Below, one piece after another: positions 45,540-61,575 of a stretch of DNA of 64,000 nt (positions are counted from its first letter, which is position 1; each line of letters opens with the position of its first letter). The notes beneath the pieces were generated by a model. That model was not told the DNA's origin. It worked only from the letters and a program-made list of their open reading frames with translations, and did not search any database. The position numbers and the translations under genes were made by a program. The DNA lies in the NCBI GenBank assembly GCA_963790475.1, contig CAWBOS010000012.1, positions 224,001 to 288,000 of the forward strand. Direction: 5' to 3'. Origin of the DNA: an uncultured delta proteobacterium (lineage in GTDB: Bacteria > Desulfobacterota > RBG-13-43-22).

Positions 45540-47693
45540 ATGGTTGAGTTTAAATATTCCAACGTGGAGCGGGAGATGGAGGTTTATGGCTATGATTCGG
45601 TGGTCCGGAGTCATTGCCGTAATTGCCATGGCGGATGCGGGGTCCTGGTCTATGTCAAGGACGATAAAATTGCCAAGATAGCAGGCGACCCCGCTTGTCC
45701 CGTCAGCCACGGGACCCTTTGCAGCAAGGGACTGGCCTCCACCCAGCTCGTCTACCACCCGGACCGGCTTACCTATCCGGTGAAACGGAAAGGCCCCAAG
45801 GGAAGCGGAAAATGGGAGCGCATCACCTGGGATGAGGCCCTGGAGACGATTGCCGGTCGGATCCTGGCCTACAAGGAAGAGTTCGGCGCCGAATCGGTCG
45901 TTTTCGGATACGGGACCGGTCGGGAAAATGAAGCGGTCATCTACCGGATTGCCAATCTGTTGGGGTCTCCTAATGTGTTGACCGCCGGCCATTTCTGCTA
46001 CGGTCCGCGGATTGCCACCAGCATCCTTACCTGCGGCACCAATCCGATCGTCGATTATGAAAATCATCCCCAATGTCTCATGATGTGGGGGAACAATGTG
46101 GTCATCAGCAACCCGGATTGTTACAAGGGCGAACCGTTTTCCGTGGCCCTGGATGCGGGGGCGAAATTGATCGTCGTTGATCCCCGGCTGACTCGGGCCG
46201 CGGCCCGGGCCGACGTCTGGCTCCAGCTCCGTCCGGGAACGGACACGGCCCTGGCCTTGGGTCTGGCCCAGGTCATCGTTAACGAGGGGCTCTATGACCG
46301 GGAATTTGTCGAGAACTATACCCACGGGTGGGAAGAGTTCGTTAGACGGGTGAATGAATATCCCCTGGAAAAGGTGGAACGGATCACCTGGATTCCCCGC
46401 GAAAAGATCGAACAAGCGGCCCGCCTCTTTGCCGAGACCAAACCGGCGGCCATTCAGTGGGGAGTGGCCATCGAGCAACAGAATACCTGTGCCGACAACG
46501 ACCGGATCCTCATGTGTCTCATGGGGATCACCGGCAACATAGATCGGCCCGGCGGCCAGGTGCTCTTCAAGACGCCGCCCATACACAACGTGGGCAAATT
46601 CGGGGCCCATGGGATGCTGCCTCCCGAGCAGGCGGCCAAACGACTGGGAGGGGACCGTTTCCGTCTGGCCGGCCGATTCGCCATCATCCAGCCCAAGGCA
46701 GTCTGGGATGCCATTCTCGATGAAAAACCCTATCCGGTCAAAATGCTCTTCTTCATCAGTTCGAATCCGCTTATGACCAGGGCCAACGCCCGTGAGGTCT
46801 ACCGGGCTTTGGAAAAGGTGGACTTTATGGCCGTGTCTGATTTCTTTTTGACCCCTACCGCGGAATTAGCCGATATCGTCCTGCCGGCCTCCACCTGGCT
46901 GGAGATGGACTACATCGGAGATTTTTGGAAACGTCACGGCCGTCTCCTGCCGCGCCGCAAAGTCGTCCAGATCGGGGAGTGTCGCTCGGACCACGAGATG
47001 CTCAACGACCTGGCTCATCGCCTCGGCCAGGGGCAGTTCTGGTGGGACTCCTTCGAAGGCGGCCTGGACTACATCCTGAGACCCATGGGCATCACCTGGC
47101 AGGAATTTAAAAAAATGGACTGCATCCGGGGAGAGGTAAAATACGAGAAATATAAAGAGGCGGGATTCTCCACCCCTACCCGGAAGTTCGAGCTCTTAAG
47201 CACCACCCTGGAGAAGATGGGCTATGATCCCTTACCGCAATTCAGGGAACCGCCGGAAAGCCCGGTCAGCACACCCCAACTCTATGAGGAATATCCCTAT
47301 ATCCTGATCACCGGCGCCAGGCAGCCGGGGTTTTTTCACACTGAAAATCGACAGGTGCCCTGGCTCAGGGAGCTGCACTCGGACCCGATGGTCGAACTCC
47401 ATCCGGACACGGCCGCCAAAGAAGGCATTCAAGAAGGGGACTGGGTGATCATCGAGTCTTTACGGGGTAAGGTCCGGCAGCGGGCTAAACTTTTTGCCGG
47501 TATGGACCCCCGGGTAGTTGCCGCCCAGCATGCCTGGTGGTTTCCGGAAAAAAAAGATCCCGGCCACGGCTGGGACGAGTCGAACATCAATATCCTGACC
47601 GACAACGCCTATGAAACCATGGACCCGGCCATGGGGGCCAGCAGCATCAGGACGCTGCTAGTCAAAATCTATCCGGAAAGGAGTCGTTCTTAA
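45540..47693 (+). CDS. Mo/W-bisPGD oxidoreductase catalytic subunit, acetylene-hydratase-like
   Basis: CRNCHGGC...C, YPVKR, GSPN-x7-C, PGTDTAL, TPTAELADIVLP, HAWWFPE; no TAT signal. Confidence 0.92.
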   Translation: MVEFKYSNVEREMEVYGYDSVVRSHCRNCHGGCGVLVYVKDDKIAKIAGDPACPVSHGTLCSKGLASTQLVYHPDRLTYPVKRKGPKGSGKWERITWDEALETIAGRILAYKEEFGAESVVFGYGTGRENEAVIYRIANLLGSPNVLTAGHFCYGPRIATSILTCGTNPIVDYENHPQCLMMWGNNVVISNPDCYKGEPFSVALDAGAKLIVVDPRLTRAAARADVWLQLRPGTDTALALGLAQVIVNEGLYDREFVENYTHGWEEFVRRVNEYPLEKVERITWIPREKIEQAARLFAETKPAAIQWGVAIEQQNTCADNDRILMCLMGITGNIDRPGGQVLFKTPPIHNVGKFGAHGMLPPEQAAKRLGGDRFRLAGRFAIIQPKAVWDAILDEKPYPVKMLFFISSNPLMTRANAREVYRALEKVDFMAVSDFFLTPTAELADIVLPASTWLEMDYIGDFWKRHGRLLPRRKVVQIGECRSDHEMLNDLAHRLGQGQFWWDSFEGGLDYILRPMGITWQEFKKMDCIRGEVKYEKYKEAGFSTPTRKFELLSTTLEKMGYDPLPQFREPPESPVSTPQLYEEYPYILITGARQPGFFHTENRQVPWLRELHSDPMVELHPDTAAKEGIQEGDWVIIESLRGKVRQRAKLFAGMDPRVVAAQHAWWFPEKKDPGHGWDESNINILTDNAYETMDPAMGASSIRTLLVKIYPERSRS

Positions 47694-47845: not shown

Positions 47846-48017
47846 ATGTATAATTTCTTCTCAAAATTAAAACTTAAAAAAAGTCAGTAGGATTTTTTAC
47901 AATTTAATTGCCGTTGTAATAGAACAGGTGTTGAACCAAGAGGCGGATTTTTTCTTTGTCATTCCGGTCCCGCCTCCCCTGCGGGATAGACTCCAGCCGG
48001 AATCCAGGGAGGCGGGA

Positions 48018-48306
48018 ATGAACAAACAATTCGCGGTATACATTCTGGCAAGCAAAAAAAATGGCACCCTTTATATCGGTGTGACATCAACTTTGGTCAA
48101 AAGAATATGGGAACACAAAAACAATTTAGTAGAGGGATTTACTAAACGCTATAATGTTCATCTGCTGGTTTGGTATGAATTGCATGAGAATATTGAATCC
48201 GCTTATGAGAGAAAAACAATTGAAAGAATGGAAGAGAAAATGGAAACTCGAATTGATTGAGAATATTAATCCGGGATGGGAGGATTTATATTACAAAATT
48301 GTTTGA
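48018..48306 (+). pseudogene. Small GIY-YIG nuclease, frameshifted near 48203
   Basis: VYILAS..GTLYIGVTS..RIWEHK, GFT.RY; the shifted frame continues REKQLKEWKRKWKLELIENINPGWEDL to TGA at 48304-48306. Confidence 0.87.
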
Positions 48307-48525: not shown

Positions 48526-49038
48526 TTGAATCAATATGCAATCATTATTGATGAAAAAGCCTGCTGGGGGTGTAAAAGCTGCGAGGTGGCCTGCAAGCAG
48601 GAAAATAAGGCTCCGATAGGGATCAAATATATTTCCGTTTCGGAAGACGGTCCGAAGATATTCGACGGGAAGCTGAATTTTGTCTACCGGGTCAATCTCT
48701 GCCGCCACTGCGATATTCCTGAATGTGTTGATTCCTGCCCCACGGAAGCGATCACCAGGCGGGACGACGGTCTCGTTATTCTGGATGACGAGGCTTGCAA
48801 CGGCTGCGCCGCCTGCGTCGAGGCCTGTCCCTACCAGGCGATTGCTTTTGATGAACAGGCCGGCAAGGCCCGCAAATGCAATCTCTGTCATCACCGGGTG
48901 GACAAGGGCCTTATCCCGGCCTGTGCCGATAATGTCTGCCTGGCCCACTGTATCTATTTCGGTCAATCCGACCGGATGGAGCAGATGATAGCTGACAAAC
49001 CCTGGTTAAAGGAGCGACTGGCTGCGGATGCCAAATAG
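48526..49038 (+). CDS. 4Fe-4S electron-transfer subunit (DmsB/NrfC-like)
   Basis: CWGCKSCEVAC, CRHC..PECVDSCP, CNGCAACVEACPY, KCNLC; TTG start. Confidence 0.9.
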   Translation: MNQYAIIIDEKACWGCKSCEVACKQENKAPIGIKYISVSEDGPKIFDGKLNFVYRVNLCRHCDIPECVDSCPTEAITRRDDGLVILDDEACNGCAACVEACPYQAIAFDEQAGKARKCNLCHHRVDKGLIPACADNVCLAHCIYFGQSDRMEQMIADKPWLKERLAADAK

Positions 49039-49187: not shown

Positions 49188-50771
49188 ATGGCGGATATTT
49201 TTGTTCACATCGGTGAAATGCTGGCGCGGAACAGCCGGATGTATCCGGACGAGGTGGCCCTGGTGGAACGGGACCCCGGGGAAAAGCGGCGTGCCGAGAT
49301 TACCTGGAAGGAGTTTAGCCGGAAGGCTGACCGTATGGCCAATTTCCTTCGGGAAAGAGGCATCGGAAAAACCGACAAGGTTGTTCACCTGATGCACAAC
49401 TCGATCGACTGGCTGGCCGCCTACTTCGGCATTATCCGCACCGGTGCCTGGGTGGTCCCGCTCAACTTCCGGTTTACCAGCGAAGATATCCAATACTGCA
49501 TCGACGTGGCCGAACCCCGGATAGTCCTGTTTGGTGAGGAATTTGCCGAAAGAATAGATTCTATCAGAGATGAACTTTCTTCCGTGGAGATCTTTATCTG
49601 TGCCGGTGAACCTATTCCAACCTACGCGGAATCATTCTCCGAGGCCATTGGGAATTCTCCGGATGAACCCTTTCCCTCGGATTTAGGACCGGATGACCCC
49701 TGCGGACTTTATTTTACTTCCGGTACGACCGGTCAACCAAAACCGATCCTCCTGACCCACAAGAACATGGTCTCTGTCTGTATCACTGAGAACATGCACC
49801 ACAGTCAGACGCACCAGGACAAATTCATTCTCATTCCGCCCCTCTATCACACCGGCGCCAAGATGCACTGGTTCGGAAGTCTGCTTGTCGGCGGACCGGC
49901 TGTCATCCTCAAAGGGTATTCACCCCAGTGGTTACTCGAGGCCGTGAGTGAAGAAAAAGGCACGATCACCTGGCTCCTGGTCCCCTGGGTACAGGACCTG
50001 CTGGTCCAATTGGACAGAGGGGAATTGAAACTGGAAAACTATTCGCTTTCCTCCTGGCGTCTCATGCATATGGGAGCCATGCCCGTTCCACCCTCTCTTA
50101 TCCGGCACTGGAGGGAATATTTCCCCGACATGGCCTACGACACCACCTATGGCCTGAGTGAGTGCACCGGACCTAATTGCATCCACCTCGGGGTTGAAAA
50201 TATCCATAAAGTGGGGGCCATAGGGAAACCTGGTTTTAACTGGGAAGCCCGGATTGTCGATGAGCAGGGAAATAATGTTACCAGGGGGACACCGGGGGAA
50301 CTGGCCCTCCGCGGGGACGGGGTTATGAGGGAGTATTACAAGAATCCCGAGGCAACGGCCGAGGCCTTAAAGGAGGGATGGCTTCACAGCGGAGATATCG
50401 TCCGAGAGGATGAAGACGGCTTCATCTATATTGTGGACCGGAAAAAGGATATCATCATAACCGGCGGCGAAAATGTCTTTCCTGTGGAGGTGGAGGATTT
50501 TTTTCATACTCACCCGGCCGTTAAGGATGTGGCGGCTTTCGGATATCCGGATGAGCGGTTGGGGGAGATCGTTGCCGTGACCATCGATCTGAAACCGGAT
50601 GAGGTCCTGACCGAAGACGAAGCCCTTAGGTTCTCCGAAACGCTGCCGCGTTATAAACGGCCCCGGAAGATTTTTTTCGGTCCGGTCCCCAGAAGCCCCA
50701 CCGGAAAGATCGAGAAACCGAAGCTGAGAAAACAATACTGCGGCCGGGAAGAGGCCGTTAATCCTTTCTAG
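49188..50771 (+). CDS. Acyl-CoA synthetase (AMP-binding family)
   Basis: YFTSGTTGQPK, YGLSE, SGD, DRKKDIIITGGENV, PRSPTGKIEK. Confidence 0.95.
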   Translation: MADIFVHIGEMLARNSRMYPDEVALVERDPGEKRRAEITWKEFSRKADRMANFLRERGIGKTDKVVHLMHNSIDWLAAYFGIIRTGAWVVPLNFRFTSEDIQYCIDVAEPRIVLFGEEFAERIDSIRDELSSVEIFICAGEPIPTYAESFSEAIGNSPDEPFPSDLGPDDPCGLYFTSGTTGQPKPILLTHKNMVSVCITENMHHSQTHQDKFILIPPLYHTGAKMHWFGSLLVGGPAVILKGYSPQWLLEAVSEEKGTITWLLVPWVQDLLVQLDRGELKLENYSLSSWRLMHMGAMPVPPSLIRHWREYFPDMAYDTTYGLSECTGPNCIHLGVENIHKVGAIGKPGFNWEARIVDEQGNNVTRGTPGELALRGDGVMREYYKNPEATAEALKEGWLHSGDIVREDEDGFIYIVDRKKDIIITGGENVFPVEVEDFFHTHPAVKDVAAFGYPDERLGEIVAVTIDLKPDEVLTEDEALRFSETLPRYKRPRKIFFGPVPRSPTGKIEKPKLRKQYCGREEAVNPF

Positions 50772-52437
50772 GAGCCTGTCGGACTTAAATTTGTCCGGTT
50801 AAATTTTCGTTTAAAAAATCTATTAAAAATGTGCTCAAAAGACAAGATTTCTCTTGGCATAAGTTGGATTATATGATAAAATACAAATTAATTCAATTAG
50901 TTAAATATATTCGACTTTAAAATTACGTAGAGAGAAAATATGAATCCTCCACGATTTAAGTGTTGTGACCGCGATACCCTATACCTGATGCCTCCCTCTA
51001 TTCATGATTGGCTACCACGAAATCACTTGGCCAGATTTATTGTGGAGGTGGTCACCAAACTTGACTTGAGGCCCATTGAAAACGCCTACGACGGCCGGGG
51101 TTCCGAGGCTTATTCTCCGACCATGCTGGTGGCATTGTTGTTTTACGGTTATGCCACGGGCGTCTTCTCCAGCCGCAAACTGGAATTGGCCACCCATGAG
51201 TCGGTAGCTTTTCGTTATATTACGGCCAATCAACACCCGGATCATGACACGATAGCTGCCTTCCGCAAACGTTTTCTGGAAGAGTTAAAGCCTCTATTCG
51301 CCCAGATCCTGATGATTGCTCAAACAATGGGTATAGCCAAACTGGGCCAAGTGGCCTTAGACGGAACTAAGATCAAGGCCAATGCCTCCCAACATAAGGC
51401 CTTGAGTTGGGATCATGCCTGTAAACTGGAACAACAGATTCAGGCAGAAGTTGACTCGCTCTTACGTCAGGCCGAAGTAGCGGACCGGGAAGCGGTTCCC
51501 GAAGGGATGAGTATCCCGGAGGAACTTTCTCGAAGAGGGAAACGGCTTGAAACTATAGAACTGGCCAAGCGAGAGATTGAACGTCGAGCCGCTGAGCGTT
51601 ATGCCAAAGAGCAAGAAGTCTACGACCAAAAGATGGCCGAACGTTATGCCAAGGAGCAAGAGGGTGGTAAGAAACCCCGAGGACGTGAACCTAAACCACC
51701 CGAGTCCGGCCCTAAAAAAACCGATCAAGTGAATCTGACCGATGAAGATTCCCGGATTATGCCCGCTGCCGGCGGGACCTTTGAACAAGCTTACAACGCC
51801 CAAGCCGGGGTGGATCTTTCAACCATGCTTATTGTCGAAAATCATGTTACCCAACAACCCAATGACAAGCAAGAAATCCAGACGACCTTGGAAAACCTGA
51901 TTTCCTTACCAGACCAGTTAGGCACGGTGGACACCCTAGTGGCCGATTCAGGCTATTTTAGTGAGGCCAACCTGGATAAGTGCGCAGCCGAGCAGATTAC
52001 CCCCTATATTGCTGTAAATCGTGAAAAACACAATATTCCCTTAGAAGAACGTTTCGCCCAGCCCGAACCTTTGCCGGAAGAGGCTGATGTGCTTACCCGA
52101 ATGAAGCATCGGCTAAAAACATCAGAGGGCAAAAAGATATACGCCCGGCGGAAGAGTACGGTCGAACCGCTATTCGGCATTATCAAGGCCATTATGGGCT
52201 TTCGACAATTTTTCCTTCGCGGGTTAGAGATGGTCAGCGGCGAATGGAATTTAGTCTGTATGGCCTACAACTTAAAAAGAATGTATGCCTTAGCTGCCAA
52301 ATAAAAAAATCCACAAAGAAAAATTACAAAAAAAGGCCTTATTCTATTATCTTGAATTTACTATAACCCTTTGGAGTCCTCAAAATAAAATCGGACCTCT
52401 CGGGAGACAATATCTTTAGCTCAAGATCGACAGGCTC
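50772..52437 (+). mobile_element. IS1182-family insertion sequence (1666 bp)
   Basis: TIR GAGCCTGTCGGACTT / AAGATCGACAGGCTC; CTAG duplicated at 50768-50771 and 52438-52441. Confidence 0.9.
50940..52304 (+). CDS. IS1182-family DDE transposase
   Basis: LMPPS..DWLP..HLARF, YGYATGVFSSR, PDHDTIA.FR, LDGTKIKANAS, ADSGY, RKSTVEPLFG. Confidence 0.93.
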   Translation: MNPPRFKCCDRDTLYLMPPSIHDWLPRNHLARFIVEVVTKLDLRPIENAYDGRGSEAYSPTMLVALLFYGYATGVFSSRKLELATHESVAFRYITANQHPDHDTIAAFRKRFLEELKPLFAQILMIAQTMGIAKLGQVALDGTKIKANASQHKALSWDHACKLEQQIQAEVDSLLRQAEVADREAVPEGMSIPEELSRRGKRLETIELAKREIERRAAERYAKEQEVYDQKMAERYAKEQEGGKKPRGREPKPPESGPKKTDQVNLTDEDSRIMPAAGGTFEQAYNAQAGVDLSTMLIVENHVTQQPNDKQEIQTTLENLISLPDQLGTVDTLVADSGYFSEANLDKCAAEQITPYIAVNREKHNIPLEERFAQPEPLPEEADVLTRMKHRLKTSEGKKIYARRKSTVEPLFGIIKAIMGFRQFFLRGLEMVSGEWNLVCMAYNLKRMYALAAK

Positions 52438-52542
52438 CTAGTATCATTGGCCCGTTTCCCTTGCACTGCTTGGTATTTTAAGGGAGGGTTACGGATCTTC
52501 CGCTATGGATCGACCGGGATCCGATGACCCGCCTGTTCCGTT

Positions 52543-53352
52543 TCAGGCTATCCGCCCTCCCGGATAGGGCGGTCCGCCGGCGTAAATCTCTTCCACCTGG
52601 ATAACCCCCGTTCGATTGAATTCCGACCAGTGCCCTTTAGTCTGATAGGAGATAGCTTCCGAGGTGAGGATATTGGCAGCCACCAGGGCCTGGTCCGTGG
52701 GTGAAAGGAACCCGTCCATTTTCCGGTAGATCAGCTTCTTTTGCCCCGCCGGCAGCAACGACAGGGATGGGATCACCTTGGGATATCCATCCAGTCCGAT
52801 CCAGGCCAGGACCTTGACGGCGGCCATCCTGGCAAATTCGCCTCTCACAGCCAGGGGAATGGTCACGTTATTGCCCGATAATTTTTTTTGAACATTGCCT
52901 TGTCTGATAGCCGCCAGCCGGGTCAGCCAATAATCCTTGAGCACCTCGAGTTTGGAGATGGCAAAGGTCCCTTCTACGGAGAGCAGGCGGATGAGCCCCA
53001 CATTACGGACTCCGGTATAGGCGTTATAGCGCAAAAGGGGACTGCCCTTTTGTCGGTCCACATAGGGTCCGGTTGGCTGAAACTCGACAAATTCTCCTTT
53101 GAGGGTCCATCCCTTCAGTTCGGGTGTGACCACCAGAATACCGATTCGCCGGTCTTCCAGGAGGTTTTTGATGCTCTTGCGCAAGAGGAAATTTCCAAAA
53201 AAGAGTGTATCCTCCTGATCTTCAGTCGGAAGCAAAGAGATACAGGGGACGACGTTGGGGATACCCTGGGCCGAGCGGGTGGCCAGAAATTTGGGGGTCA
53301 TCGCTCCGCGCAAAGCGTTCAATAAATTGGGCGTTTGTTTGAGAAGGGACAT
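52543..53352 (-). CDS. Tandem pyridoxamine-5'-phosphate-oxidase-like (split-barrel) protein
   Basis: KFLAT...GIPNVVP and KVLAW..DGYP repeats; KSIKNL; RBS GGAGGAG. Confidence 0.7.
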   Translation of the reverse strand: MSLLKQTPNLLNALRGAMTPKFLATRSAQGIPNVVPCISLLPTEDQEDTLFFGNFLLRKSIKNLLEDRRIGILVVTPELKGWTLKGEFVEFQPTGPYVDRQKGSPLLRYNAYTGVRNVGLIRLLSVEGTFAISKLEVLKDYWLTRLAAIRQGNVQKKLSGNNVTIPLAVRGEFARMAAVKVLAWIGLDGYPKVIPSLSLLPAGQKKLIYRKMDGFLSPTDQALVAANILTSEAISYQTKGHWSEFNRTGVIQVEEIYAGGPPYPGGRIA

Positions 53353-53512
53353 GACGATCTCCTCCAGATGGTGGTAGTTTCTCAAACACCTTAATCTGAG
53401 AATCTATCTTTAAGGGCCATCTCCAAATTAGTTGGTCAATAATAAACCCTGAATCTTTGGAATCGTCCATCCATCAAGGCTGATTGGATTACAGGTAAAA
53501 ACTGATAACCAC

Positions 53513-53738
53513 CTCTCGCCCGTTCCCTTCGGTCTCTTGAGCTCGCAGAGGGCACGGAGAAAGGCAGATTAGATTGGTCCAATTTCCCGAGGGGGGAAAT
53601 TAGACCGGCCGGCTCAGCCTCCGGCCTGGGTGCGCTACAACGCTGGACAGTTTTTTCATTGCGGTCCCCTCAACCGCAATGAAAAAGATAAAGGGTTTTC
53701 TCAGTGAACTCTGTGTCCTCCAGCGAAGCGGGCGAGAG
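53513..53738. repeat. ~226 bp nested-hairpin element (family C, architecture shared with family B)
   Basis: Ends CTCTCGCCCG / CGGGCGAGAG; hairpins GGTCCAATTTCC-CGAGGG-GGAAATTAGACC and TTTTTCATTGCGGT-CCCCTCA-ACCGCAATGAAAAA. Confidence 0.75.
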
Positions 53739-53825
53739 ACAAAAAATCTTTCTTGGTCCAACTTCGTCAAGTGCCCAAATCCATTGGTAGAAGAACCATG
53801 ACTGTCAACTGTCATCGGTTTGGGT

Positions 53826-54743
53826 TTATCTGGTCGCCCCGGACCACACGGCGGTCGGCACCAGTTCCACCGCGGTCTGCCAAAGGGATTCCATCTCGGC
53901 CTGGGTTAAGAGGGGCGTTGATTCCAACAGATACGGTAAATCAAGCCGATGGTATTTGGGCTGGCCAAAATTGGTGTAGGCCAGCAAATCCCAACGCTGC
54001 ACGGTCGGCAAGGCTTCGCGGATAAAGCCGCCGATGGTTTGGATATTTTCCGGGTCACTGGTATAACCGGGAATGACCGGGGTTCGAATCCACATCGTTT
54101 TGCCGGCAGCGGCCAGGCGGCGGGCATTCTCCAGGATAGTGGTGTTCGAGAGGCCCGTGGCCCGTTTGTGTCCTTCCTCGTCCATCAGTTTAAGATCGAA
54201 CAGAACCAGGTCCAGCCAGGGTAATATCTTTTCGTAGCGCTCCCAGGGGACAGCGCCGGAGGTATCCAGGGCCACAGGCATCCCGGCTTCCCGGCAGCGA
54301 GGCAGAACTTTCTCCAGGAAATCCGTCTGCAACATCGGCTCGCCCCCGCTAAAGGTGACTCCTCCTCCCGATGTTTCATAAAAAGCCCGATCTTTCAAAA
54401 GCTCAGCGATCAATTCATCGGGGGTAAAGGAACGACCGATAATTTCTATGGCCCCTGCCGGGCAGGCATCCCCGCACTTCCCGCAGAGGGTGCAACGCCC
54501 CCGGTCGATTCCCATCCCCTCGGGCCTGAGATTTAATGCCTTTTCCGGACAAACCTTAAGACAATCCCTGGCGCCGATGCAGCGAACGTCATACCACATG
54601 AGATCGGGTTGGGGACGGAGTCCTTCCGGGTTATGACACCACGGACAGCGCAGGGGGCAGCCTTTGAGAAAGACCGTGGTGCGGATGCCGGGACCATCCT
54701 CGGTACTGAAATGTTGGAGATTAAAGATCAGACCGGTGGACAC
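53826..54743 (-). CDS. Glycyl-radical enzyme activating enzyme
   Basis: FSTEDGPGIRTTVFLKGCPLRCPWCHNPE, ferredoxin insert, GGVTFSGGEP. Confidence 0.95.
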   Translation of the reverse strand: MSTGLIFNLQHFSTEDGPGIRTTVFLKGCPLRCPWCHNPEGLRPQPDLMWYDVRCIGARDCLKVCPEKALNLRPEGMGIDRGRCTLCGKCGDACPAGAIEIIGRSFTPDELIAELLKDRAFYETSGGGVTFSGGEPMLQTDFLEKVLPRCREAGMPVALDTSGAVPWERYEKILPWLDLVLFDLKLMDEEGHKRATGLSNTTILENARRLAAAGKTMWIRTPVIPGYTSDPENIQTIGGFIREALPTVQRWDLLAYTNFGQPKYHRLDLPYLLESTPLLTQAEMESLWQTAVELVPTAVWSGATR

Positions 54744-54819
54744 CCTGATTATCCCCTAACTGTGATTGACAAGGCTGTTTTAAGAAATGAATTAGCAATC
54801 TAACCTTTAAAAAGAAATT

Positions 54820-55016
54820 TTTTGCCACAGACACACAAGGACGCACACAGACTTTTTCCCCTGCGGACTTTCGCAGGAGAAAATCTGCTTAGCCGAGAAG
54901 GCCAGCTGGGTATTAATTGATAGGCCCACCCTTTTCATGAGTTAGCTATTTAACTGGGGTCGTCAATCAGTACACATCCTTACTGTCGGGCGTTGTCTGC
55001 CTTGTCCGCGGTTAAA
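54820..55016. repeat. Palindromic element (family A)
   Basis: TTTTGCCACAGACACACAAGG...CTGCCTTGTCCGCGGTTAAA; internal TTTTCCCCTGCG/CGCAGGAGAAAA hairpin. Confidence 0.65.
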
Positions 55017-55029
55017 TCCGTTCTAACCA

Positions 55030-57432
55030 TCAAATCGCATGGGACTCCCGGGCGATGATCTCGTCTTGAATCTCTTTCCCCAGGCCTACAAAATAGGCAT
55101 TGTAACCGGTGACCCGCACCAGCAGGTTGTGGTATTCGTCGGGGAACTTTTGGGCCTCCCGCAGGGTATCGGCGTCCAGGACATTGACCTGCAGACAGGT
55201 CCCACCCACTTGGCCATAGGCCCGTAACAGGGCTTTGAGCTTTTGGCGCTGTTCGGGATTCCGCAGCAGGTTCGGGCTGAAGCTCATGGTGTGGCTGGCC
55301 CCGTTGGGCGCGGTCTCCAAACCCAGTTTGCCGACACTCTTGATGATCGAGGTCGGTCCTTTGCGGTCGGCCCCATTGACCGGGCACACCGCATTGGAAA
55401 GGAATTGTCCTCGAAGGCGGCCGTCGGGCGTTGCCGCGGTCGTCGGCGCGTAAGCGATCCAGTAGTTCCAGGAAAGATAGCCGCCGCGATAGTGTTTTCC
55501 GGTTGGTGAAAAGTGCTTAAAGGCCTCTTCGGTCCAAAAGCGGCTGACCTCGCGGGCGATCTCATCGGCGTAACCGTCGTCATTGCCGTACTTGGGTGCT
55601 TTGACCAGCAGGGTCCGGCGCAGATTCTCCTGGCCTTTAAAATTGTCGCGGATGGCCCCAACCAGTTTTTCCATCTCGATCTGCCGGTCTTCATAAACCA
55701 GCTTTTTTACAGCGGCAAGGCTGTCGGCCACAGTGGCCAGGGCCACGCCTTCCACCGTCAGAAAATTATGTCGCGCGCCGCCGGCGTTGCAGTCCTTGCC
55801 GTTTTGCAGACAACCGTCCACCAGGGCGCTGAGGTAGGGGACCGGTTCCCAACGGGCCCGCCCGGCATCGGCCAGGTTGTTGGCGGCGATGAGTTGTTCC
55901 AGGATGGTTTTGAGCTGTTGTTTAAAGGCCTCCATAAACTGAGGGAAGTCTTTAAAATTTTTGGGATCACCGGTGCGCGGTCCGATCCGATGGCCCGTGG
56001 CCATATCGCGGCCGTCATTTAAAACCAGTTCGACGGCTTTGGCCAGGTTCAGGTTGACATCCACAGTGCCGGAGCGGTCGTCACCGATCAAGGTGTTTTC
56101 CAGGCAGCCGACCGGTGCGTAATCCCAGAGCCTTTCTTCCGGCAGGCCCTGCCAACGCAACCCGGCGATGGAATTTTCATCAAAGTTGATCAGGAAGGGT
56201 GAACCCTGGGCCTTGGAGAGCATTTCCACCAGACGATCAAGCAAGCGGTCGGAGGTGCCGGCGTGGACGCGCACATTGGGTTTGGGTTCCAGGAGGTTCA
56301 TCTCTTCGATAACCTCCAGCATCAGATAGGTCAGGTCATTGGCGGCGTCATGGCCCTGGGCATCCATTCCGGCCAGGGTTATAAGCTGGCCAAAGGAAGA
56401 ATTGATGCCCTGATTGGTCCCGGCCCAGCCTTGATAATCATAGACATAATTATGTTTGATCCACCAGCATTGCAGCCATTCGCGGGCGGACTCCTCCGTA
56501 AGGAGTCCCGCCTTTCGATCGGCCTGGAAGAATGGGTAAAGGTATTGATCCACCCGTCCCGGCGACAGGCCCGGTCCCGGATAACTTTCGGCGGCCATGG
56601 CCAGCATGTGCGTGAACCAAAGGGCCTGCAGGGCTTCGGAGAATGTTTCCGGGGGCAGCCAGGGGACCTTTTGGCAGATGCGGGCTATCTCCAGCAACTC
56701 CTGCTCACGTTTCGGATCCGTTTCCATCTCGGCCAGGAGTTTAGCCTGGATGGCGTAGCGGTCGGCCAAATCATGTGTGGCCTCCGCGGAAATCATGATT
56801 GCCCGGGCCATATTCTTTTGCTCGCCCGTACTCCCGGGATCATCGAACAAAACATGGGCCTCGTCCCGGATTCCTTTCCAGCCGATTTTAAGGACCTTGG
56901 GGTAGTTAGGCACCAGATGACCGGGGACGGCAGCGCAGTTTCCCACTCCAAGGTTATTAAGGTCATTCCAGGCCTTCAGGAATGTTTGCTCCTCCCGGTC
57001 CCGGGCCCTGGCTTCGTCTTTTTTGAGACAACGGGAGAGGGCCGTGCTGAAATGGGAGCCGACGACCAGCTCACCATCCAGTATTTCAACAGGCAAGTGA
57101 GAGCGAACCACTTTACGAAAAAACAAGGCTTGTCGAACAGCCAGGGGTTCCTGCCAGAAGTCCGAGGGCAAGTCGACCGGCTGAGACGCCGCCCAGAGGT
57201 AACTGCGAAATCCCTTCTGGAACAGGGCGATTTCAGGAACGTTGGTCCAGTTCCAGATGGAATACACCGTGTCCCAGGGCGTGCCGGTGGTGTAGGCCCG
57301 GACCTCATTGGTATATTCCCGTTCATAGAAGGAAAAAAATTGCCGACGCAAACGCTCCACACGAGGTGAAAGGTTTGAGGACGCCGACCATAATTGCTCG
57401 GGAGAGACGGCGCAGGTTGATTCGCATATCAT
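55030..57432 (-). CDS. Glycyl radical enzyme (PFL2/eliminase-like), substrate unknown
   Basis: SPGRVDQYL, Cys loop VGCLE, PKYGNDD, ATPDGR, Gly loop LLVRVTGYNAYF; RBS GGAGG. Confidence 0.93.
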   Translation of the reverse strand: MICESTCAVSPEQLWSASSNLSPRVERLRRQFFSFYEREYTNEVRAYTTGTPWDTVYSIWNWTNVPEIALFQKGFRSYLWAASQPVDLPSDFWQEPLAVRQALFFRKVVRSHLPVEILDGELVVGSHFSTALSRCLKKDEARARDREEQTFLKAWNDLNNLGVGNCAAVPGHLVPNYPKVLKIGWKGIRDEAHVLFDDPGSTGEQKNMARAIMISAEATHDLADRYAIQAKLLAEMETDPKREQELLEIARICQKVPWLPPETFSEALQALWFTHMLAMAAESYPGPGLSPGRVDQYLYPFFQADRKAGLLTEESAREWLQCWWIKHNYVYDYQGWAGTNQGINSSFGQLITLAGMDAQGHDAANDLTYLMLEVIEEMNLLEPKPNVRVHAGTSDRLLDRLVEMLSKAQGSPFLINFDENSIAGLRWQGLPEERLWDYAPVGCLENTLIGDDRSGTVDVNLNLAKAVELVLNDGRDMATGHRIGPRTGDPKNFKDFPQFMEAFKQQLKTILEQLIAANNLADAGRARWEPVPYLSALVDGCLQNGKDCNAGGARHNFLTVEGVALATVADSLAAVKKLVYEDRQIEMEKLVGAIRDNFKGQENLRRTLLVKAPKYGNDDGYADEIAREVSRFWTEEAFKHFSPTGKHYRGGYLSWNYWIAYAPTTAATPDGRLRGQFLSNAVCPVNGADRKGPTSIIKSVGKLGLETAPNGASHTMSFSPNLLRNPEQRQKLKALLRAYGQVGGTCLQVNVLDADTLREAQKFPDEYHNLLVRVTGYNAYFVGLGKEIQDEIIARESHAI

Positions 57433-57837
57433 GGATGCACCTCCGTTAAATAAGGGCCCTTTGAAGCCGGTTCCATAAGGATGAGATCACGATCAAGACC
57501 TTTACCTCCTGTTGAAACAGGAATGAAGAAAGAGCAAGGTCACCAATCTGGAAAATACCATGAGGAGGATCAAAAAGCAATGTTCTTGATTTTTAGGGTC
57601 ATTGGGCCGCTTTTATTTAGAAACCTTTGAGGGTCGAGGTGGTTTTGATATGAAAGAGTAATAGAAAAAGGATGGGAGGGGAATGAGGGCACGGGGATTT
57701 GGAGTTGGAGGATTTTTTTGATTTTAAAAAAGGTAAAACAAGAATACTTTTTTTTCAGTCTGCCCCCAATTATTGTCCTTCTAACTAAGATCGAATAAGT
57801 TGTTGAATGAAAGATTTAAAAAGTCTACAATTAACAA

Positions 57838-58011
57838 ATGATTGAGACTTGGGGAAGAATTCTTAATTTAGTTCAGCATCGGAATGTTAGGATCTCCGAA
57901 CATGGATATGACGAACTGGCAGACGATGACATCGCTATCCGGGATATCATGGCCGATATTCCCAGGGCCCTCATTATTGAGCACTAACCAGAATATCCGA
58001 AAGGTCCCTAA
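57838..58011 (+). pseudogene. DUF4258-like (toxin-type) gene remnant
   Basis: Manual translation MIETW...VRISEHGYDELADDDI...IIEH*PEYPKGP*; internal stop where DY is expected, then truncated. Confidence 0.65.
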
Positions 58012-58069
58012 TTACGACAAACAATTGAAAGAGAAGGCCGGGTCATAAACCACATACAACGAGAGGAAA

Positions 58070-58483
58070 ATGGTTAAGTTCAGTGATCTTGAAGACGCCT
58101 TTCTTTTTGTGAGTTCATCTTCTGACGGAGTGAATTCGGCTTATCTAAACAAGGACACGGGTCAGATCGTCTACCGGTCAGAGATGGGAGATGATGACGA
58201 AATCGCCGATGAGGAACTTGAGGGGGATGGATGGCTGGATATTCCTCATAAGAACGATCTGGACTTGGGTTGGGAGCTTGTATTCGAATTTGTTGAAACC
58301 CACCTGGCCGAAAAACACGAACAAGTCCGGCAAATGTTTCGAAGACCTGGGGGGTACAGACATTTCAAGGCCTTGCTGGAGAACAAGGGGCTGTTGGAAA
58401 CCTGGTACGAATTTGAGAACCGGCGGGAGCAGGAGGCCTTGAGGGAATGGTGCGAAGAAAATGAAGTAAAATGGTCCGACTGA
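58070..58483 (+). CDS. UPF0158 family protein
   Basis: DLEDAF..V, YL.K.TG.I, IP.K.DLDLG, GGYRHFK.LL, WYEFE, LREWCEEN. Confidence 0.8.
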   Translation: MVKFSDLEDAFLFVSSSSDGVNSAYLNKDTGQIVYRSEMGDDDEIADEELEGDGWLDIPHKNDLDLGWELVFEFVETHLAEKHEQVRQMFRRPGGYRHFKALLENKGLLETWYEFENRREQEALREWCEENEVKWSD

Positions 58484-58597
58484 CGGTTGCCCATCAACGC
58501 AGAATGTTATCAACCCCGCGGACACCTTTCTCGGTTAGTTAAGAAATAAGTATTGTCCACGTGATTTCTCCGATCTACTGCTCACTCTACGAAAACC

Positions 58598-58635
58598 TTG
58601 ACATGGTATGCATATAAAGTTATTATTATGCATAC
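58598..58635 (+). promoter_or_regulatory. sigma70 promoter with an overlapping operator (vapBC autoregulation)
   Basis: TTGACA-17-TATTAT; inverted repeat GTATGCATA...TATGCATAC. Confidence 0.75.
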
Positions 58636-58649
58636 GAATAAGGAGGCCG

Positions 58650-58856
58650 ATGATGAGAACAACATTGGATTTACCTGAACATTTAATTGATGAGGCCATG
58701 AAGGTGACTCAAATTAAAACAAAAACCCAGGTCATTATAAGCGCCTTGGAAGATTTAATCATAAAGTCGAGGATATCCGGGTTGAAACAGTTTAAAGGTA
58801 AGGTCAATTTGGACATTGATTTGAACGCCATCAGAGGGCGTCAATGTCGGTCTTAG
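58650..58856 (+). CDS. vapB: VapB antitoxin (RHH/DUF2191 type)
   Basis: MRTTLDLPEHLIDEAM...TKT; RBS AGGAGG; overlaps the PIN gene. Confidence 0.85.
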   Translation: MMRTTLDLPEHLIDEAMKVTQIKTKTQVIISALEDLIIKSRISGLKQFKGKVNLDIDLNAIRGRQCRS

Positions 58857-59224
58857 TTGATACCTCTCTCTGGATAGAATATTTCAGAAGCGGAAATAAT
58901 TCTGAAAAACTGGATCACTTAATAGATAAGAACCTGATTGTTACTAATGACCTTATTCTCTCAGAATTGGTCCCGGCTTTAAGAGTGCGCCGGCAGGGAA
59001 AGATTGTGAATTTATTATTTCAAATTCAAAAGTTGGAACTATCCATAGATTGGAATCAAATTATCGACTTCCAATTCAAATGCTTAAAAAATGGTTTAAA
59101 CGGAATCGGAATTCCGGATCTTATTGTTGCCCAAAACGCGATACAAAATCACTGTGAAATTTATTCACTAGATAACCATTTTAGACTCATAAAGGGCATC
59201 CTTGGACTTCAACTTACCGGTTAA
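58844..59224 (+). CDS. vapC: VapC PIN-domain toxin
   Basis: VLVDTSLWI, SEL, PDLIVA, SLDNHF. Confidence 0.9.
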   Translation: MSVLVDTSLWIEYFRSGNNSEKLDHLIDKNLIVTNDLILSELVPALRVRRQGKIVNLLFQIQKLELSIDWNQIIDFQFKCLKNGLNGIGIPDLIVAQNAIQNHCEIYSLDNHFRLIKGILGLQLTG

Positions 59225-59590: not shown

Positions 59591-60532
59591 ATGGTCACAA
59601 AAAAGAAAAAAGAAGATCCGGAAGCGGAAATTGAAAAAACAGAAGCTTCCCAAAAGATGCAGGACCTAAAAAAACGGATCATCCGTTTTTGCCGGAATAA
59701 AGGAGTTGATTTAATCGGCTTCGCCCCGGTAGAACGCTGGGCTGAAGCCAAAGAAGTACCCCCGGAATTCTGGCCTCAGGCCATCTGGCCGCCCGCCAGA
59801 ACCGTAATCGTCCTGGGGCTGGAAATGCCGCTGCCTATTGTGGAAACCACTCCATCCGTTGTCCATATGGAGATGTATAAAACCGCCAATGCGGAACTGG
59901 ATCAATTGGCTTACGATCTGACCCGGTATCTCAATCGTCTGGGGCATGCCTCCTTTTTCTTTCCCCGGGACGGTTACGGCAGTATGAGGGCCTTGAAGGA
60001 AAATAATCGGGCGGCCTTTGCCCATATTCCCGCGGCCAAATATGCCGGCCTGGGGACTGTGGGAGCCAGCCATAATCTTTTGACTTCGGAATTCGGCCCC
60101 AGAGTCCGTTTTGTTTCCGTATTCACTTCGGCCAGGATACCTCCGGATCCTATGATTAAAAAAGAGCTCTGCATCAAGTGTGAAGCCTGCGCCAAGTGCT
60201 GTCCCAAAAAAGCGATCAGTATCCGGCCTGACCGGGTAGTCGGCGATTATGACGATCAAGCCTGTCTGGAAATGGCCGAAGAACTCGTGGCCCGGAGGTG
60301 TTTCCCTTGTGGAATCTGCACCAAGGTTTGCCCCGTCGGCCGGGACCGGGCTGTCTATAAGCAACCCGGGATCACGAAAAAATACCTGAGGGAAAAAGAG
60401 GCCCTGGCCGCTAATCCTGAGGACCCCGAATACCGGGCCTGGACCCATCTGCGTAAATACGGGGTTGCTCAGGGGAAAAAGCGTGAAGGGGAAAAGGCCG
60501 GTGCCGGCCCGAATGGCAAGGTGGTTTCCTGA
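59591..60532 (+). CDS. Epoxyqueuosine-reductase-like (QueG/RdhA superfamily) Fe-S protein
   Basis: GVDLIGFA, HIPAAKYAGLG, FGPRVRF, CIKCEACAKCCP, CGICTKVCP. Confidence 0.83.
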   Translation: MVTKKKKEDPEAEIEKTEASQKMQDLKKRIIRFCRNKGVDLIGFAPVERWAEAKEVPPEFWPQAIWPPARTVIVLGLEMPLPIVETTPSVVHMEMYKTANAELDQLAYDLTRYLNRLGHASFFFPRDGYGSMRALKENNRAAFAHIPAAKYAGLGTVGASHNLLTSEFGPRVRFVSVFTSARIPPDPMIKKELCIKCEACAKCCPKKAISIRPDRVVGDYDDQACLEMAEELVARRCFPCGICTKVCPVGRDRAVYKQPGITKKYLREKEALAANPEDPEYRAWTHLRKYGVAQGKKREGEKAGAGPNGKVVS

Positions 60533-60837: not shown

Positions 60838-61575
60838 ATGAATTTGGAAGAATTCTGCGACCGTTTCCAGGCCCATCTGAACCAGGGTCCCAGTACCCCG
60901 CTATTGGGGGAGGCCGGCCGGCAGCTCTTAAGGGACTTGCTTAAAGATCCCTCCTGGTTCGGGGAATTCCTGCAGAAATACATTGCCGATCCGGCCTTTC
61001 TTTCTGACCCACCGGCATCCATATTCGATAATGAAATAAAACTCTTTCGCAGCCCGGACAAGTCTTTTCTCCTCCTGGCCTACATCTGGGACAACAGCGG
61101 GCTGGGCCCTATTCATGATCACGGGGCCTGGGGTATCATCGGGGGTTTGATCGGTTCCTTACGGGAAATCAAGTACCAAAGAATGGACGATAACCAGGTT
61201 GAAGGATACGCCGAATTGAAACAAATTTCCGATACCCAGATTAAGCCCGAAGATATCCGGATGATCCTTCCCTTGGATAAAGGCATCCATCAGACCGGAG
61301 CGGCGGATGATCGGCTAACTATTACCTTCCATATATATGGGAGAAGCCTTCGGAAGGGATATATTCATTATTTCGATCCCGCTGAAAAAAAAGTCTCCCA
61401 GTCCTACAGGCGACTTCAGTTTCGAAAGGTTTTAGCCCTTCAGGCCTTGGTTGCCCTGGGAGAAGCGGTCGGGAAAAGGTTTTTAACCCTGGATCTGATT
61501 CAATCCTTACCGGAGGATTTAGTCAAAGAGTTTCGGGTGATCTCTTTGGCCTCTGATAAATACCTGCAGGAATAA
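60838..61575 (+). CDS. Cysteine-dioxygenase-like cupin
   Basis: YIW...PIHDHGAWG, GIH, TFHIYG. Confidence 0.8.
   Translation: MNLEEFCDRFQAHLNQGPSTPLLGEAGRQLLRDLLKDPSWFGEFLQKYIADPAFLSDPPASIFDNEIKLFRSPDKSFLLLAYIWDNSGLGPIHDHGAWGIIGGLIGSLREIKYQRMDDNQVEGYAELKQISDTQIKPEDIRMILPLDKGIHQTGAADDRLTITFHIYGRSLRKGYIHYFDPAEKKVSQSYRRLQFRKVLALQALVALGEAVGKRFLTLDLIQSLPEDLVKEFRVISLASDKYLQE

Follow-up and report, generated by a model that had tools for sequence, protein, structure and literature searches.

A glycyl radical enzyme outside the characterised families, co-inherited with its activase and a tandem split-barrel partner protein

We analysed a 64,000-nucleotide stretch of DNA (hereafter the window; positions 224,001 to 288,000 of contig CAWBOS010000012.1, assembly GCA_963790475.1) from an uncultured delta proteobacterium, focusing on three neighbouring genes that encode an oxygen-sensitive glycyl radical enzyme (GRE), its activase and a protein made of two split barrels, here called the partner. 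The source assembly comprises 6.34 Mb and is estimated to be 100% complete with 9.68% contamination. The three genes form a real and well-conserved unit, which is laid out in the window as follows:

55030-57432, minus strand: GRE of 800 amino acids, with the domains PFL-like (PF02901) and Gly_radical (PF01228)
53826-54743, minus strand: GRE-activating radical-SAM (S-adenosylmethionine) enzyme of 305 amino acids, GTG start, TIGR02494
53607-53626, minus strand: terminator-like hairpin in the spacer between activase and partner
53512-53754, strand unassigned: copy of a short dispersed repeat within the same spacer, with matches elsewhere in the assembly
52543-53352, minus strand: split-barrel partner of 269 amino acids from the ATG at 53352, PNPOx-like/FMN-bp/HupZ-like according to structure model and profiles

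The start codon of the GRE gene has GGAGG 7 nt upstream. The open reading frame (ORF) of the partner was first called as 52543-53385 (280 amino acids, TTG start at 53385), but the ATG at 53352 is most likely the true start, because GGAGGAG lies 7 nt 5' of it and the orthologues begin there too. The spacer between activase and partner measures 473 bp, compared with approximately 30–220 bp in close relatives. Its sequence (53386-53825, 440 bp) gave 18 further partial matches on six contigs of the same assembly (68–95% identity over about 36–272 bases), and the unusual length is explained by the presence of this dispersed repeat. An Rfam scan of 52000-58600 (E ≤ 1) returned two chance-level matches only and no riboswitch or leader.

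The GRE falls in the PFL-like branch of the superfamily: it matches PF02901 with 470.6 bits and PF01228 with 92.5 bits (cut-off 22.2), it has a glycine domain of the RVxG[FYW] type and a ten-stranded barrel fold with a Cys loop, and its activase carries CX3CX2C. All motifs quoted in a preliminary description of this DNA were found as given, namely VGCLE (residues 441-445), RVTGYN (773-778), AAESYPGPGLS (280-290) and GYLSWNYW (651-658) in the GRE and CIGARDC in the activase; a further segment of the GRE, YDYQGWAGTNQGINSSFGQ, occupies residues 331-349. The key residues are Gly776 in the Gly loop, Cys443 and Glu445 in the Cys loop, and His172. The segments specific to this family are 280-290, 331-349, 452-458, 651-658 and C683-PVNGAD. 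The Cys loop holds a single Cys and lacks the adjacent Cys pair of the PFL type.

No NCBIfam equivalog reached its cut-off. HypD (NF043068) scored best (470 bits, cut-off 1100), followed by HpsG (444.8, cut-off 1000), HpfG (403.8, cut-off 1000), CutC (396, cut-off 1050), the PflD type (356.2, cut-off 1109), IAD (283.9, cut-off 1100), HPAD (259.7, cut-off 1150) and PFL (TIGR01255, 107.7, cut-off 994.2); the scores for HypD and CutC are thus under half of what those models require. TIGR01774, which describes the PFL2/glycerol dehydratase subfamily, matched from residue 168 on with 519.5 bits (cut-off 678.2). The best sequence match in the PDB was CutC (406.7 bits), and matches to solved structures start near residue 170, with the N-terminal 170 residues unaligned. 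When the AlphaFold2 model (mean per-residue confidence, pLDDT, 85; predicted TM-score, pTM, 0.88) was searched with Foldseek, ranks 1–50 were all GREs and solved GREs aligned at TM 0.73–0.81 with 24–30% identity, in a near-tie between propanediol dehydratase, glycerol dehydratase, HypD, Archaeoglobus fulgidus PFL2 and CutC. Glycerol dehydratase (1r8w) and propanediol dehydratase (5i2g, 9rco) share the same full-length fold (TM 0.79–0.81, 28–30% identity), while HypD (6vxc) and CutC (5fau, 9f3w), which have the CXE motif in common with the window GRE, are 27–28% identical to it. These results support the view that the GRE belongs to no characterised GRE family, as had been proposed; it lies under all equivalog cut-offs and does not cluster at high identity with any characterised GRE. 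The clade is large: over 120 cluster representatives share at least 73% identity with the window GRE. Its homologues bear either no name or a generic one ("formate C-acetyltransferase" or "trans-4-hydroxy-L-proline dehydratase"); annotation as pyruvate formate-lyase or hydroxyproline dehydratase is a routine error in this clade.

The A. fulgidus GRE (2f3o) was among the five best PDB matches. The function of that protein, PFL2, is still debated according to a June 2026 review of the GRE superfamily (PMC13450708), and an assignment as an alkane- or hydrocarbon-activating X-succinate synthase (XSS) has been argued for it. CoA-linked genes also occur near the three genes in some loci. We nevertheless consider an XSS activity of the window GRE the least probable of the explanations weighed here, since identity to the alpha subunits of BSS and MASS is only 23–25% and no ORF for a HiPIP-like or rubredoxin-like small subunit was found in the window operon or its gaps. 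According to the same review, such subunits accompany every characterised XSS (PMC13450708). The absence of Bss- or Hpd-type small subunits had already been noted, and the gap between GRE and activase indeed contains no Cys-rich small ORF.

To describe the conservation of the unit, we collected 78 loci from contigs of one genome per species whose GRE is 57–91% identical to that of the window (clade 1). Clade 1 spans at least six bacterial phyla, all represented by metagenome-assembled genomes (MAGs) from peat, groundwater and sediment. By their labels, the closest relatives (82–91%) come from Thermodesulfobacteriota or "delta proteobacteria", and the others from Anaerolineae and further Chloroflexota, Planctomycetota, Acidobacteriota, Riflebacteria and Actinomycetota (Geothermincolia, Anoxymicrobiaceae and Acidimicrobiales). 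Among 42 aligned clade-1 GREs, mean column identity is 73%, RVTG776YN and C443 are invariant, and the segments that had been singled out as unusual are all invariant or nearly so. The gene order GRE, activase, partner is kept across these loci. By tblastn, the activase lies downstream on the same strand in 73/78 loci, and the partner is present in 62/78 (61 downstream of the GRE and one upstream, in locus L047). Its presence rises to 59/62 where at least 2.3 kb follow the GRE and to 44/45 where at least 8 kb do; the 16 loci without a partner are contig ends, except L015 and L020.

A more distant group was reached through the partner. A sample of 401 genomes from the phylum contained 49 with a partner at E ≤ 1e-20, and these fell into two score groups. 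We took 18 places from the low-scoring group (117–155 bits) as clade 2. In 17 of them the partner, which is about 25% identical to that of the window, adjoins a GRE 43–48% identical over its full length, and the eighteenth is at a contig end. The activase lies between GRE and partner in 13 places; four of the 17 gave no activase match in the fetched stretch, with the GRE and partner matches 150–350 bp apart. The clade-2 GREs are likewise without family assignment and have no PDB sequence match at E ≤ 1e-90. Signatures common to both clades (42 and 12 sequences) are ESYPGPG, GCLENT...DRSGTVD, LSWNYW, CP-x-NGAD, PNGASHT and RVTGYNAYF. At two clade-2 places (L084 and L086), a second GRE, about 35% identical to that of the window, lies just past the partner, so that one activase and one partner are found with two GREs.

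The genome that contains the window encodes five full-length GREs and one fragment or broken copy. The four full-length GREs besides that of the window are of the PFL2 type; two stand in tandem approximately 120 kb from the window. The GRE features elsewhere in the assembly were recorded as follows:

C12:397011-399940, C1:71248-71553, C10:833597-833896 and C1:182400-182696 (contig and positions): other GREs of the same genome, all below the NCBIfam equivalog cut-offs

Two further activase genes lie among the four other GRE loci. A profile search found no split-barrel partner at any of these four; the only full two-barrel partner in the genome adjoins the window GRE, and a distant single-barrel match of 136 amino acids is on contig C6. 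Where all three genes are present (50 loci), pairwise distances correlate at r = 0.94 between GRE and partner and at 0.88 both between GRE and activase and between activase and partner. These correlations are only descriptive, because the sequences are related and not independent. The partner evolves approximately 1.6 times faster than the GRE. The neighbourhood analysis thus bore out the expectation that the PNPOx-like gene would be conserved nearby (62/78 loci, 44/45 long loci, 17/18 clade-2 places), and the partner is most likely an obligate, co-inherited companion of the GRE itself.

This linkage bears on the alternative in which the GRE is a divergent orthologue of a named enzyme (HypD, glycerol or propanediol dehydratase, or PFL) and the partner a bystander. 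HypD is the best-scoring equivalog, and names given to homologues by their sources include "trans-4-hydroxy-L-proline dehydratase" (several are labelled HypD by JGI) and "formate C-acetyltransferase". However, HypD reaches only 470 bits against 1100 and TIGR01255 only 107.7 against 994.2, the loop has a single Cys and no Cys-Cys pair, H281/S282 of glycerol dehydratase (GD) are replaced by P287/G288, and a gene retained in 44/45 long loci does not behave as a bystander. We regard this alternative as very improbable.

The activase matches TIGR02494 with 336.3 bits (cut-off 174.35) and is under all equivalog cut-offs. Its radical-SAM motif CX3CX2C (C29/C33/C36) is present in 65/65 activases. CIGARDC (55-61) lies C-terminal to it, in a ferredoxin-like insert with seven Cys (C55, C61, C65, C84, C87, C90 and C94). 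The first ferredoxin motif reads C55-x2-A58-x2-C61-x3-C65, with Ala58 where most activases have Cys, in agreement with the Ala-for-Cys replacement that had been described. Position 58 is Ala in 54/65 clade-1 activases and Cys in 3/65, while all nine clade-2 activases displayed have the canonical four Cys, so that the variant is real and inherited, a trait of clade 1 that does not define the module. The CxxAxxC variant recurs in an activase that belongs to one of the other GREs of the genome. Most GRE activases carry eight extra Cys, and the role of that domain is not known (PMC13450708).

Since the partner gene lies directly 3' of the activase gene in most loci, the partner might be a dedicated low-potential electron donor to the activase that replaces flavodoxin, which is the in vivo reductant of the [4Fe-4S] cluster of the E. 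coli PFL activase (PFL-AE) according to the review (PMC13450708). The N-terminal half of the partner is closest in fold to proteins of the FMN (flavin mononucleotide) electron-carrier type (Swol_0183, Z 16.2; D. vulgaris, Z 14.2), which speaks for such a role. We consider it improbable, considering that four of 17 clade-2 places have the partner by the GRE with no activase match in the fetched stretch, that the genome has five full-length GREs and further activases but one full partner only, and that the distances of the partner follow those of the GRE (r 0.94) more closely than those of the activase (0.88).

The partner belongs to the split-barrel superfamily. The window protein scores 25.2–25.3 bits with PNPOx_N (PF01243), below the cut-off of 28.1, and the same profile matches 48/48 aligned orthologues (best E 5.4e-12). 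In the AlphaFold2 model (pLDDT 93.2, pTM 0.91), two beta-barrel halves are joined by a long connecting helix. A wide structural search, which covered essentially residues 1-134, placed residues 1-132 near the Swol_0183 FMN-binding protein (3in6, Z 16.2), HupZ (Z 15.8), the FMN-binding protein of D. vulgaris (Z 14.2), FMN-bound YviC (14.0) and an F420 reductase (12.8). Superpositions of the N-half on 3in6, 1axj (D. vulgaris), 7eg5 (YviC), 5esc/7kpz (HupZ) and 3f7e gave Z 12.8–16.2 and root-mean-square deviations of 1.9–3.0 Å over 113–127 residues. The fold of the C-half rests on DSSP and an internal-repeat test: profiles of the two halves aligned by hhalign with 98.1% probability (E 7.5e-14, 96 columns, 21% identity), which identifies the partner as an internal duplication and a covalent pseudo-dimer. 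Small split-barrel proteins are homodimers of approximately 120–150 amino acids; they consist of separate chains, whereas the partner is two fused and diverged copies. Only the N-half has the helix with Lys59 and Asn63 and a 24-residue insertion with an invariant RYNAY (108-112). This insertion is missing from the C-half, which is a degenerate duplicate, and from HupZ. The partner has one Cys and no metal-cluster motif.

The partner had been described as PNPOx-like and flavin-binding. The first term holds for the tandem split barrel and the PNPOx_N profile, but not for function: no NCBIfam family matched at E ≤ 0.001, E. coli PdxH (1g76) reached only Z 9.2 at rank 42, and orthology to PdxH is not indicated. 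The second agrees with the likeness of the N-half to FMN-binding proteins and sits less easily with the nearest relatives by sequence, the haem-binding HupZ and HutZ. F420 is an unlikely cofactor in the source organism, as neither CofD nor CofG was found in its assembly. The family is compact, with 588 representatives (50%-identity clusters) at E ≤ 0.001, 266 at 1e-10 and 103 at 1e-30 among 1.84 billion proteins. Two apparently longer partner ORFs arose from longest-ORF gene calling: in the 585-residue ORF of L086 the activase match is in a different frame, making it an upstream extension that overlaps the activase gene and not a fusion, and the 427-residue ORF of L085 is probably of the same kind.

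A complex between the partner and residues 70-800 of the GRE was predicted in three runs with three controls, both chains being supplied with their own alignments. The score was 0.38 (runs 0.01, 0.42 and 0.38) compared with 0.00 for the best control, with at least 73% contact agreement and a partner pLDDT of at least 79. In a benchmark, the mark was reached by 116/157 solved complexes and 2/215 mismatched pairs; scores of 0.60 or lower were obtained for both mismatches that reached it and for no more than 18 of the 157 solved complexes. The prediction lends weak support to a physical association. Considering the strong genomic co-inheritance, we take the score as a modest push towards association and not as a demonstration.

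Both the co-inheritance and the complex score enter into the question of whether the partner is a subunit at all. It could be a separate flavin-dependent oxidoreductase for the next or previous step, for example one that reduces an enone, imine or aldehyde produced by the GRE, and would then stay beside the GRE because the two steps are useless apart. The superfamily is rich in FMN and F420 reductases (3f7e, 5jab, 8d4w and Ddn among the matches), the N-half keeps the family-typical K59/N63 helix, up to 6.7 kb separate partner and GRE in Anaerolineae, and no fusion to a GRE was found. Against this, the partner is confined to this GRE clade (17/18 distant homologues, and a single full copy in its own genome), the complex has its weak support (0.38 compared with 0.00), and no conserved NAD(P)H-binding module or reductant-supplying gene lies nearby. 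We judge a separate oxidoreductase unlikely, though it is the alternative that we take most seriously. Somewhat less likely still, the partner might be a flavin-carrying redox subunit of the GRE, which would then carry out a net reductive or oxidative transformation (compare the external reductant of class III ribonucleotide reductase), with Cys683 as a possible second redox-active thiol. If this were true, the enzyme would form a class of its own among the PFL-like GREs and be the first to have a flavin-type subunit without iron, with a range from Thermodesulfobacteriota to Chloroflexota.

As for the chemistry of the GRE, C443-x-E445 and H172 are invariant in the 42 clade-1 sequences and conserved in the 12 clade-2 sequences, and H172 aligns with GD His164 in a phmmer alignment. 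The protein thus has both the C-x-E motif of the 1,2-eliminases and isomerases and, as judged from this alignment, a His at the His164 position. According to the review, the CXE Glu forms a hydrogen bond with the hydroxyl of the substrate in every eliminase or isomerase of known structure, and GD His164 has been proposed to protonate the hydroxyl as it leaves (PMC13450708). Glycerol and propanediol dehydratases, which are C-O-cleaving 1,2-eliminases, share with the window GRE the C-x-E Cys loop, the RVxGY Gly loop, an activase with a ferredoxin insert and the His164 position. They differ from it in that its diol-binding residues are replaced, its segments are aromatic, it has Cys683, it is accompanied by a split-barrel partner and there are no microcompartment genes; the noted absence of the latter extends to the whole 6.34-Mb assembly, in which no shell domain (PF00936) was found. 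Pocket-lining segments are rich in Tyr, Trp and Phe (Y284, Y329, Y331, W336, F347, Y652, W655, Y657 and W658), so that the pocket is predicted to be much more aromatic than in diol dehydratases. In the substrate-loop segment of HypD, a Phe aligns with Phe347, and the position of Cys683 is Ser in GD, CutC, HypD and PFL2.

With Glu445 and His172 kept, elimination or ring-opening isomerisation is the most likely reaction. The most economical reading of these residues would be chemistry already known from eliminases or isomerases, applied to a new substrate, for which a hydroxylated compound with a sizeable hydrophobic part is the best candidate. The suggestion of new radical chemistry was accordingly not demonstrated, given the retained C-x-E loop and the His aligned with GD His164. 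The main chemical rival is a decarboxylase, or another non-eliminase, acting on an aromatic or hydrophobic carboxylic acid, with the partner as an accessory subunit in the way that HPAD needs gamma. GRE decarboxylases also retain Cys-x-Glu (C503/E505 in HPAD, Glu502 in IAD; PMC13450708). Further points on this side are the aromatic-rich pocket segments, the lack of a conserved downstream pathway, as in decarboxylase operons, the recurrence of genes of the CoA-ligase and beta-oxidation type (AMP-binding in 11/79 loci) and GntR/FCD-type regulators upstream in 8/18 clade-2 places. Regulators of this type usually sense carboxylates. The profile scores favour the eliminases (HypD 470, HpsG 445 and CutC 396 bits, compared with 284 for IAD and 260 for HPAD), His172 takes the position of the general acid in the dehydratases, and we consider decarboxylation rather improbable.

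Our preferred explanation, on which we are evenly divided between acceptance and doubt, is that the locus is a self-contained module of an eliminase-type GRE and a split-barrel accessory subunit that binds it. Following the known mechanism of the family, the activase would use S-adenosylmethionine to place a radical on Gly776, which would pass to Cys443 and abstract a hydrogen atom from a small organic substrate. The substrate, which would carry a hydroxyl, would then most likely undergo 1,2-elimination or ring-opening isomerisation, in which Glu445 would deprotonate the hydroxyl and His172 protonate the leaving group. The partner would be an accessory subunit of a new type: a pseudo-dimer whose N-half holds the single FMN-type site, and which binds the GRE and either controls it or carries electrons to or from the reaction. 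The genes, the families to which they belong, their joint inheritance and the absence of an assignment are established here; the chemistry, the cofactor and the physical binding are inferred.

Several observations weigh against this explanation. The C-x-E motif does not prove elimination, as decarboxylases have it too. The glycerol-binding residues of GD are replaced (H281/S282 by P287/G288, and Y640/S642 by L653/W655), and the GRE model has pLDDT below 50 at 342-347, 654-660, 682-685 and 779-784, that is, in the family-specific loops and the Gly loop. The only solved relatives of the partner by profile are HupZ (E 0.0015) and HutZ (E 0.019), which bind haem and are not flavoproteins. No fusion of the partner to GRE or activase was seen among longer proteins, the best 150 profile matches all being at most 337 amino acids long, although this is weak evidence. 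The complex score lies where passes are more often wrong without a strong prior, and one run gave 0.01. With a repeat element and a terminator-like hairpin between activase and partner, co-transcription in the window is not assured. Finally, the gene context gave no clue to the substrate, as the genes beyond the three differ by lineage.

This last point comes from an analysis in which the ORFs of the 78 loci and the window were clustered and 36 cluster representatives annotated, followed by the 18 clade-2 places. Nothing beyond the three genes is conserved across lineages, and gene neighbourhood was rejected as a route to the substrate. In Anaerolineae, genes for C69 and M24 peptidases, a class-III aminotransferase and a DUF6206 protein are inserted among the three, with up to 6.7 kb of other genes between GRE and partner. 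In Actinomycetota, the partner is followed by an acyl-CoA dehydrogenase-like gene and the GRE is preceded by an alpha-alpha-toroid gene. MAGs labelled Thermodesulfobacteriota have genes for a hot-dog dehydratase, an enoyl-CoA hydratase and an AMP-binding ligase near the unit, and a cluster of AMP-binding acyl-CoA ligases is found within 8 kb of the GRE in 11/79 loci, the window included. Clade 2 has the GntR/FCD regulator (8/18 places) and PAS histidine kinases, and a molybdopterin oxidoreductase lies approximately 3 kb past the partner gene in L082, which may be coincidence. The window itself has these genes around the unit:

45540-47693, plus strand: molybdopterin oxidoreductase (Fdh-alpha/PhsA-like, below cut-offs)
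47928-48260, plus strand: ORF with a GIY-YIG nuclease domain
48526-49038, plus strand: 4Fe-4S dicluster protein
49188-50771, plus strand: AMP-binding acyl-CoA ligase
50940-52304, plus strand: IS1182-family transposase, intact-looking (NF033551, 351.5 bits, cut-off 270)
58608-59224, plus strand: type II toxin-antitoxin pair VapB-VapC, located between the Fe-S protein gene and the GRE operon
59591-60532, plus strand: reductive-dehalogenase/QueG-like Fe-S protein (weak matches only)
60838-61575, plus strand: protein of 245 amino acids, no family match

The transposase lies approximately 240 bp past the stop codon of the partner and is convergent with the three genes, and the GIY-YIG ORF separates the molybdopterin oxidoreductase from the 4Fe-4S dicluster protein. 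A UPF0158-like gene is on the GRE-side flank, with the VapBC pair and the QueG-like protein. The Fe-S protein and the 245-residue protein also occur as a pair (clusters c30 and c31) upstream of the GRE in L004 and L007.

Known GRE accessory proteins offer a partial parallel to the partner. HPAD gamma, BSS beta and gamma, and MASS beta, gamma and delta are likewise small proteins encoded and co-inherited with a GRE, and binding to the GRE is proposed for the partner as well, with weak support from the complex model. These subunits are HiPIP-like [4Fe-4S] or rubredoxin-like proteins according to the review (PMC13450708). The partner, in contrast, is a tandem split barrel of 269 residues that contains one Cys and lacks a metal-cluster motif, and it accompanies an eliminase-like GRE, while the known subunits accompany decarboxylases or XSS. 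The same review lists the characterised enzymes and their subunits, and the sections consulted and a term search of its text gave no mention of a flavin or split-barrel partner (PMC13450708). A limonenylsuccinate synthase GRE (PMC12583861) was set aside as being of the BSS type and unrelated to the clade of the window GRE. A full-text literature search, with most subscription journals outside its coverage, found no publication that links a GRE with a split-barrel protein. As far as these searches reach, a partner of this kind has no counterpart in any characterised GRE.

In guts, sediments and oil reservoirs, a large share of the demanding anaerobic reactions falls to GREs, and the 2026 review stresses that entire clades of them are still without a function (PMC13450708). 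The window locus itself is one more instance of the module, in a Thermodesulfobacteriota-like genome, and adds a modest gain. If the substrate were identified, a gene that is common among uncultured anaerobes would gain a reaction, and evidence on what the partner does could add a new type of GRE subunit.

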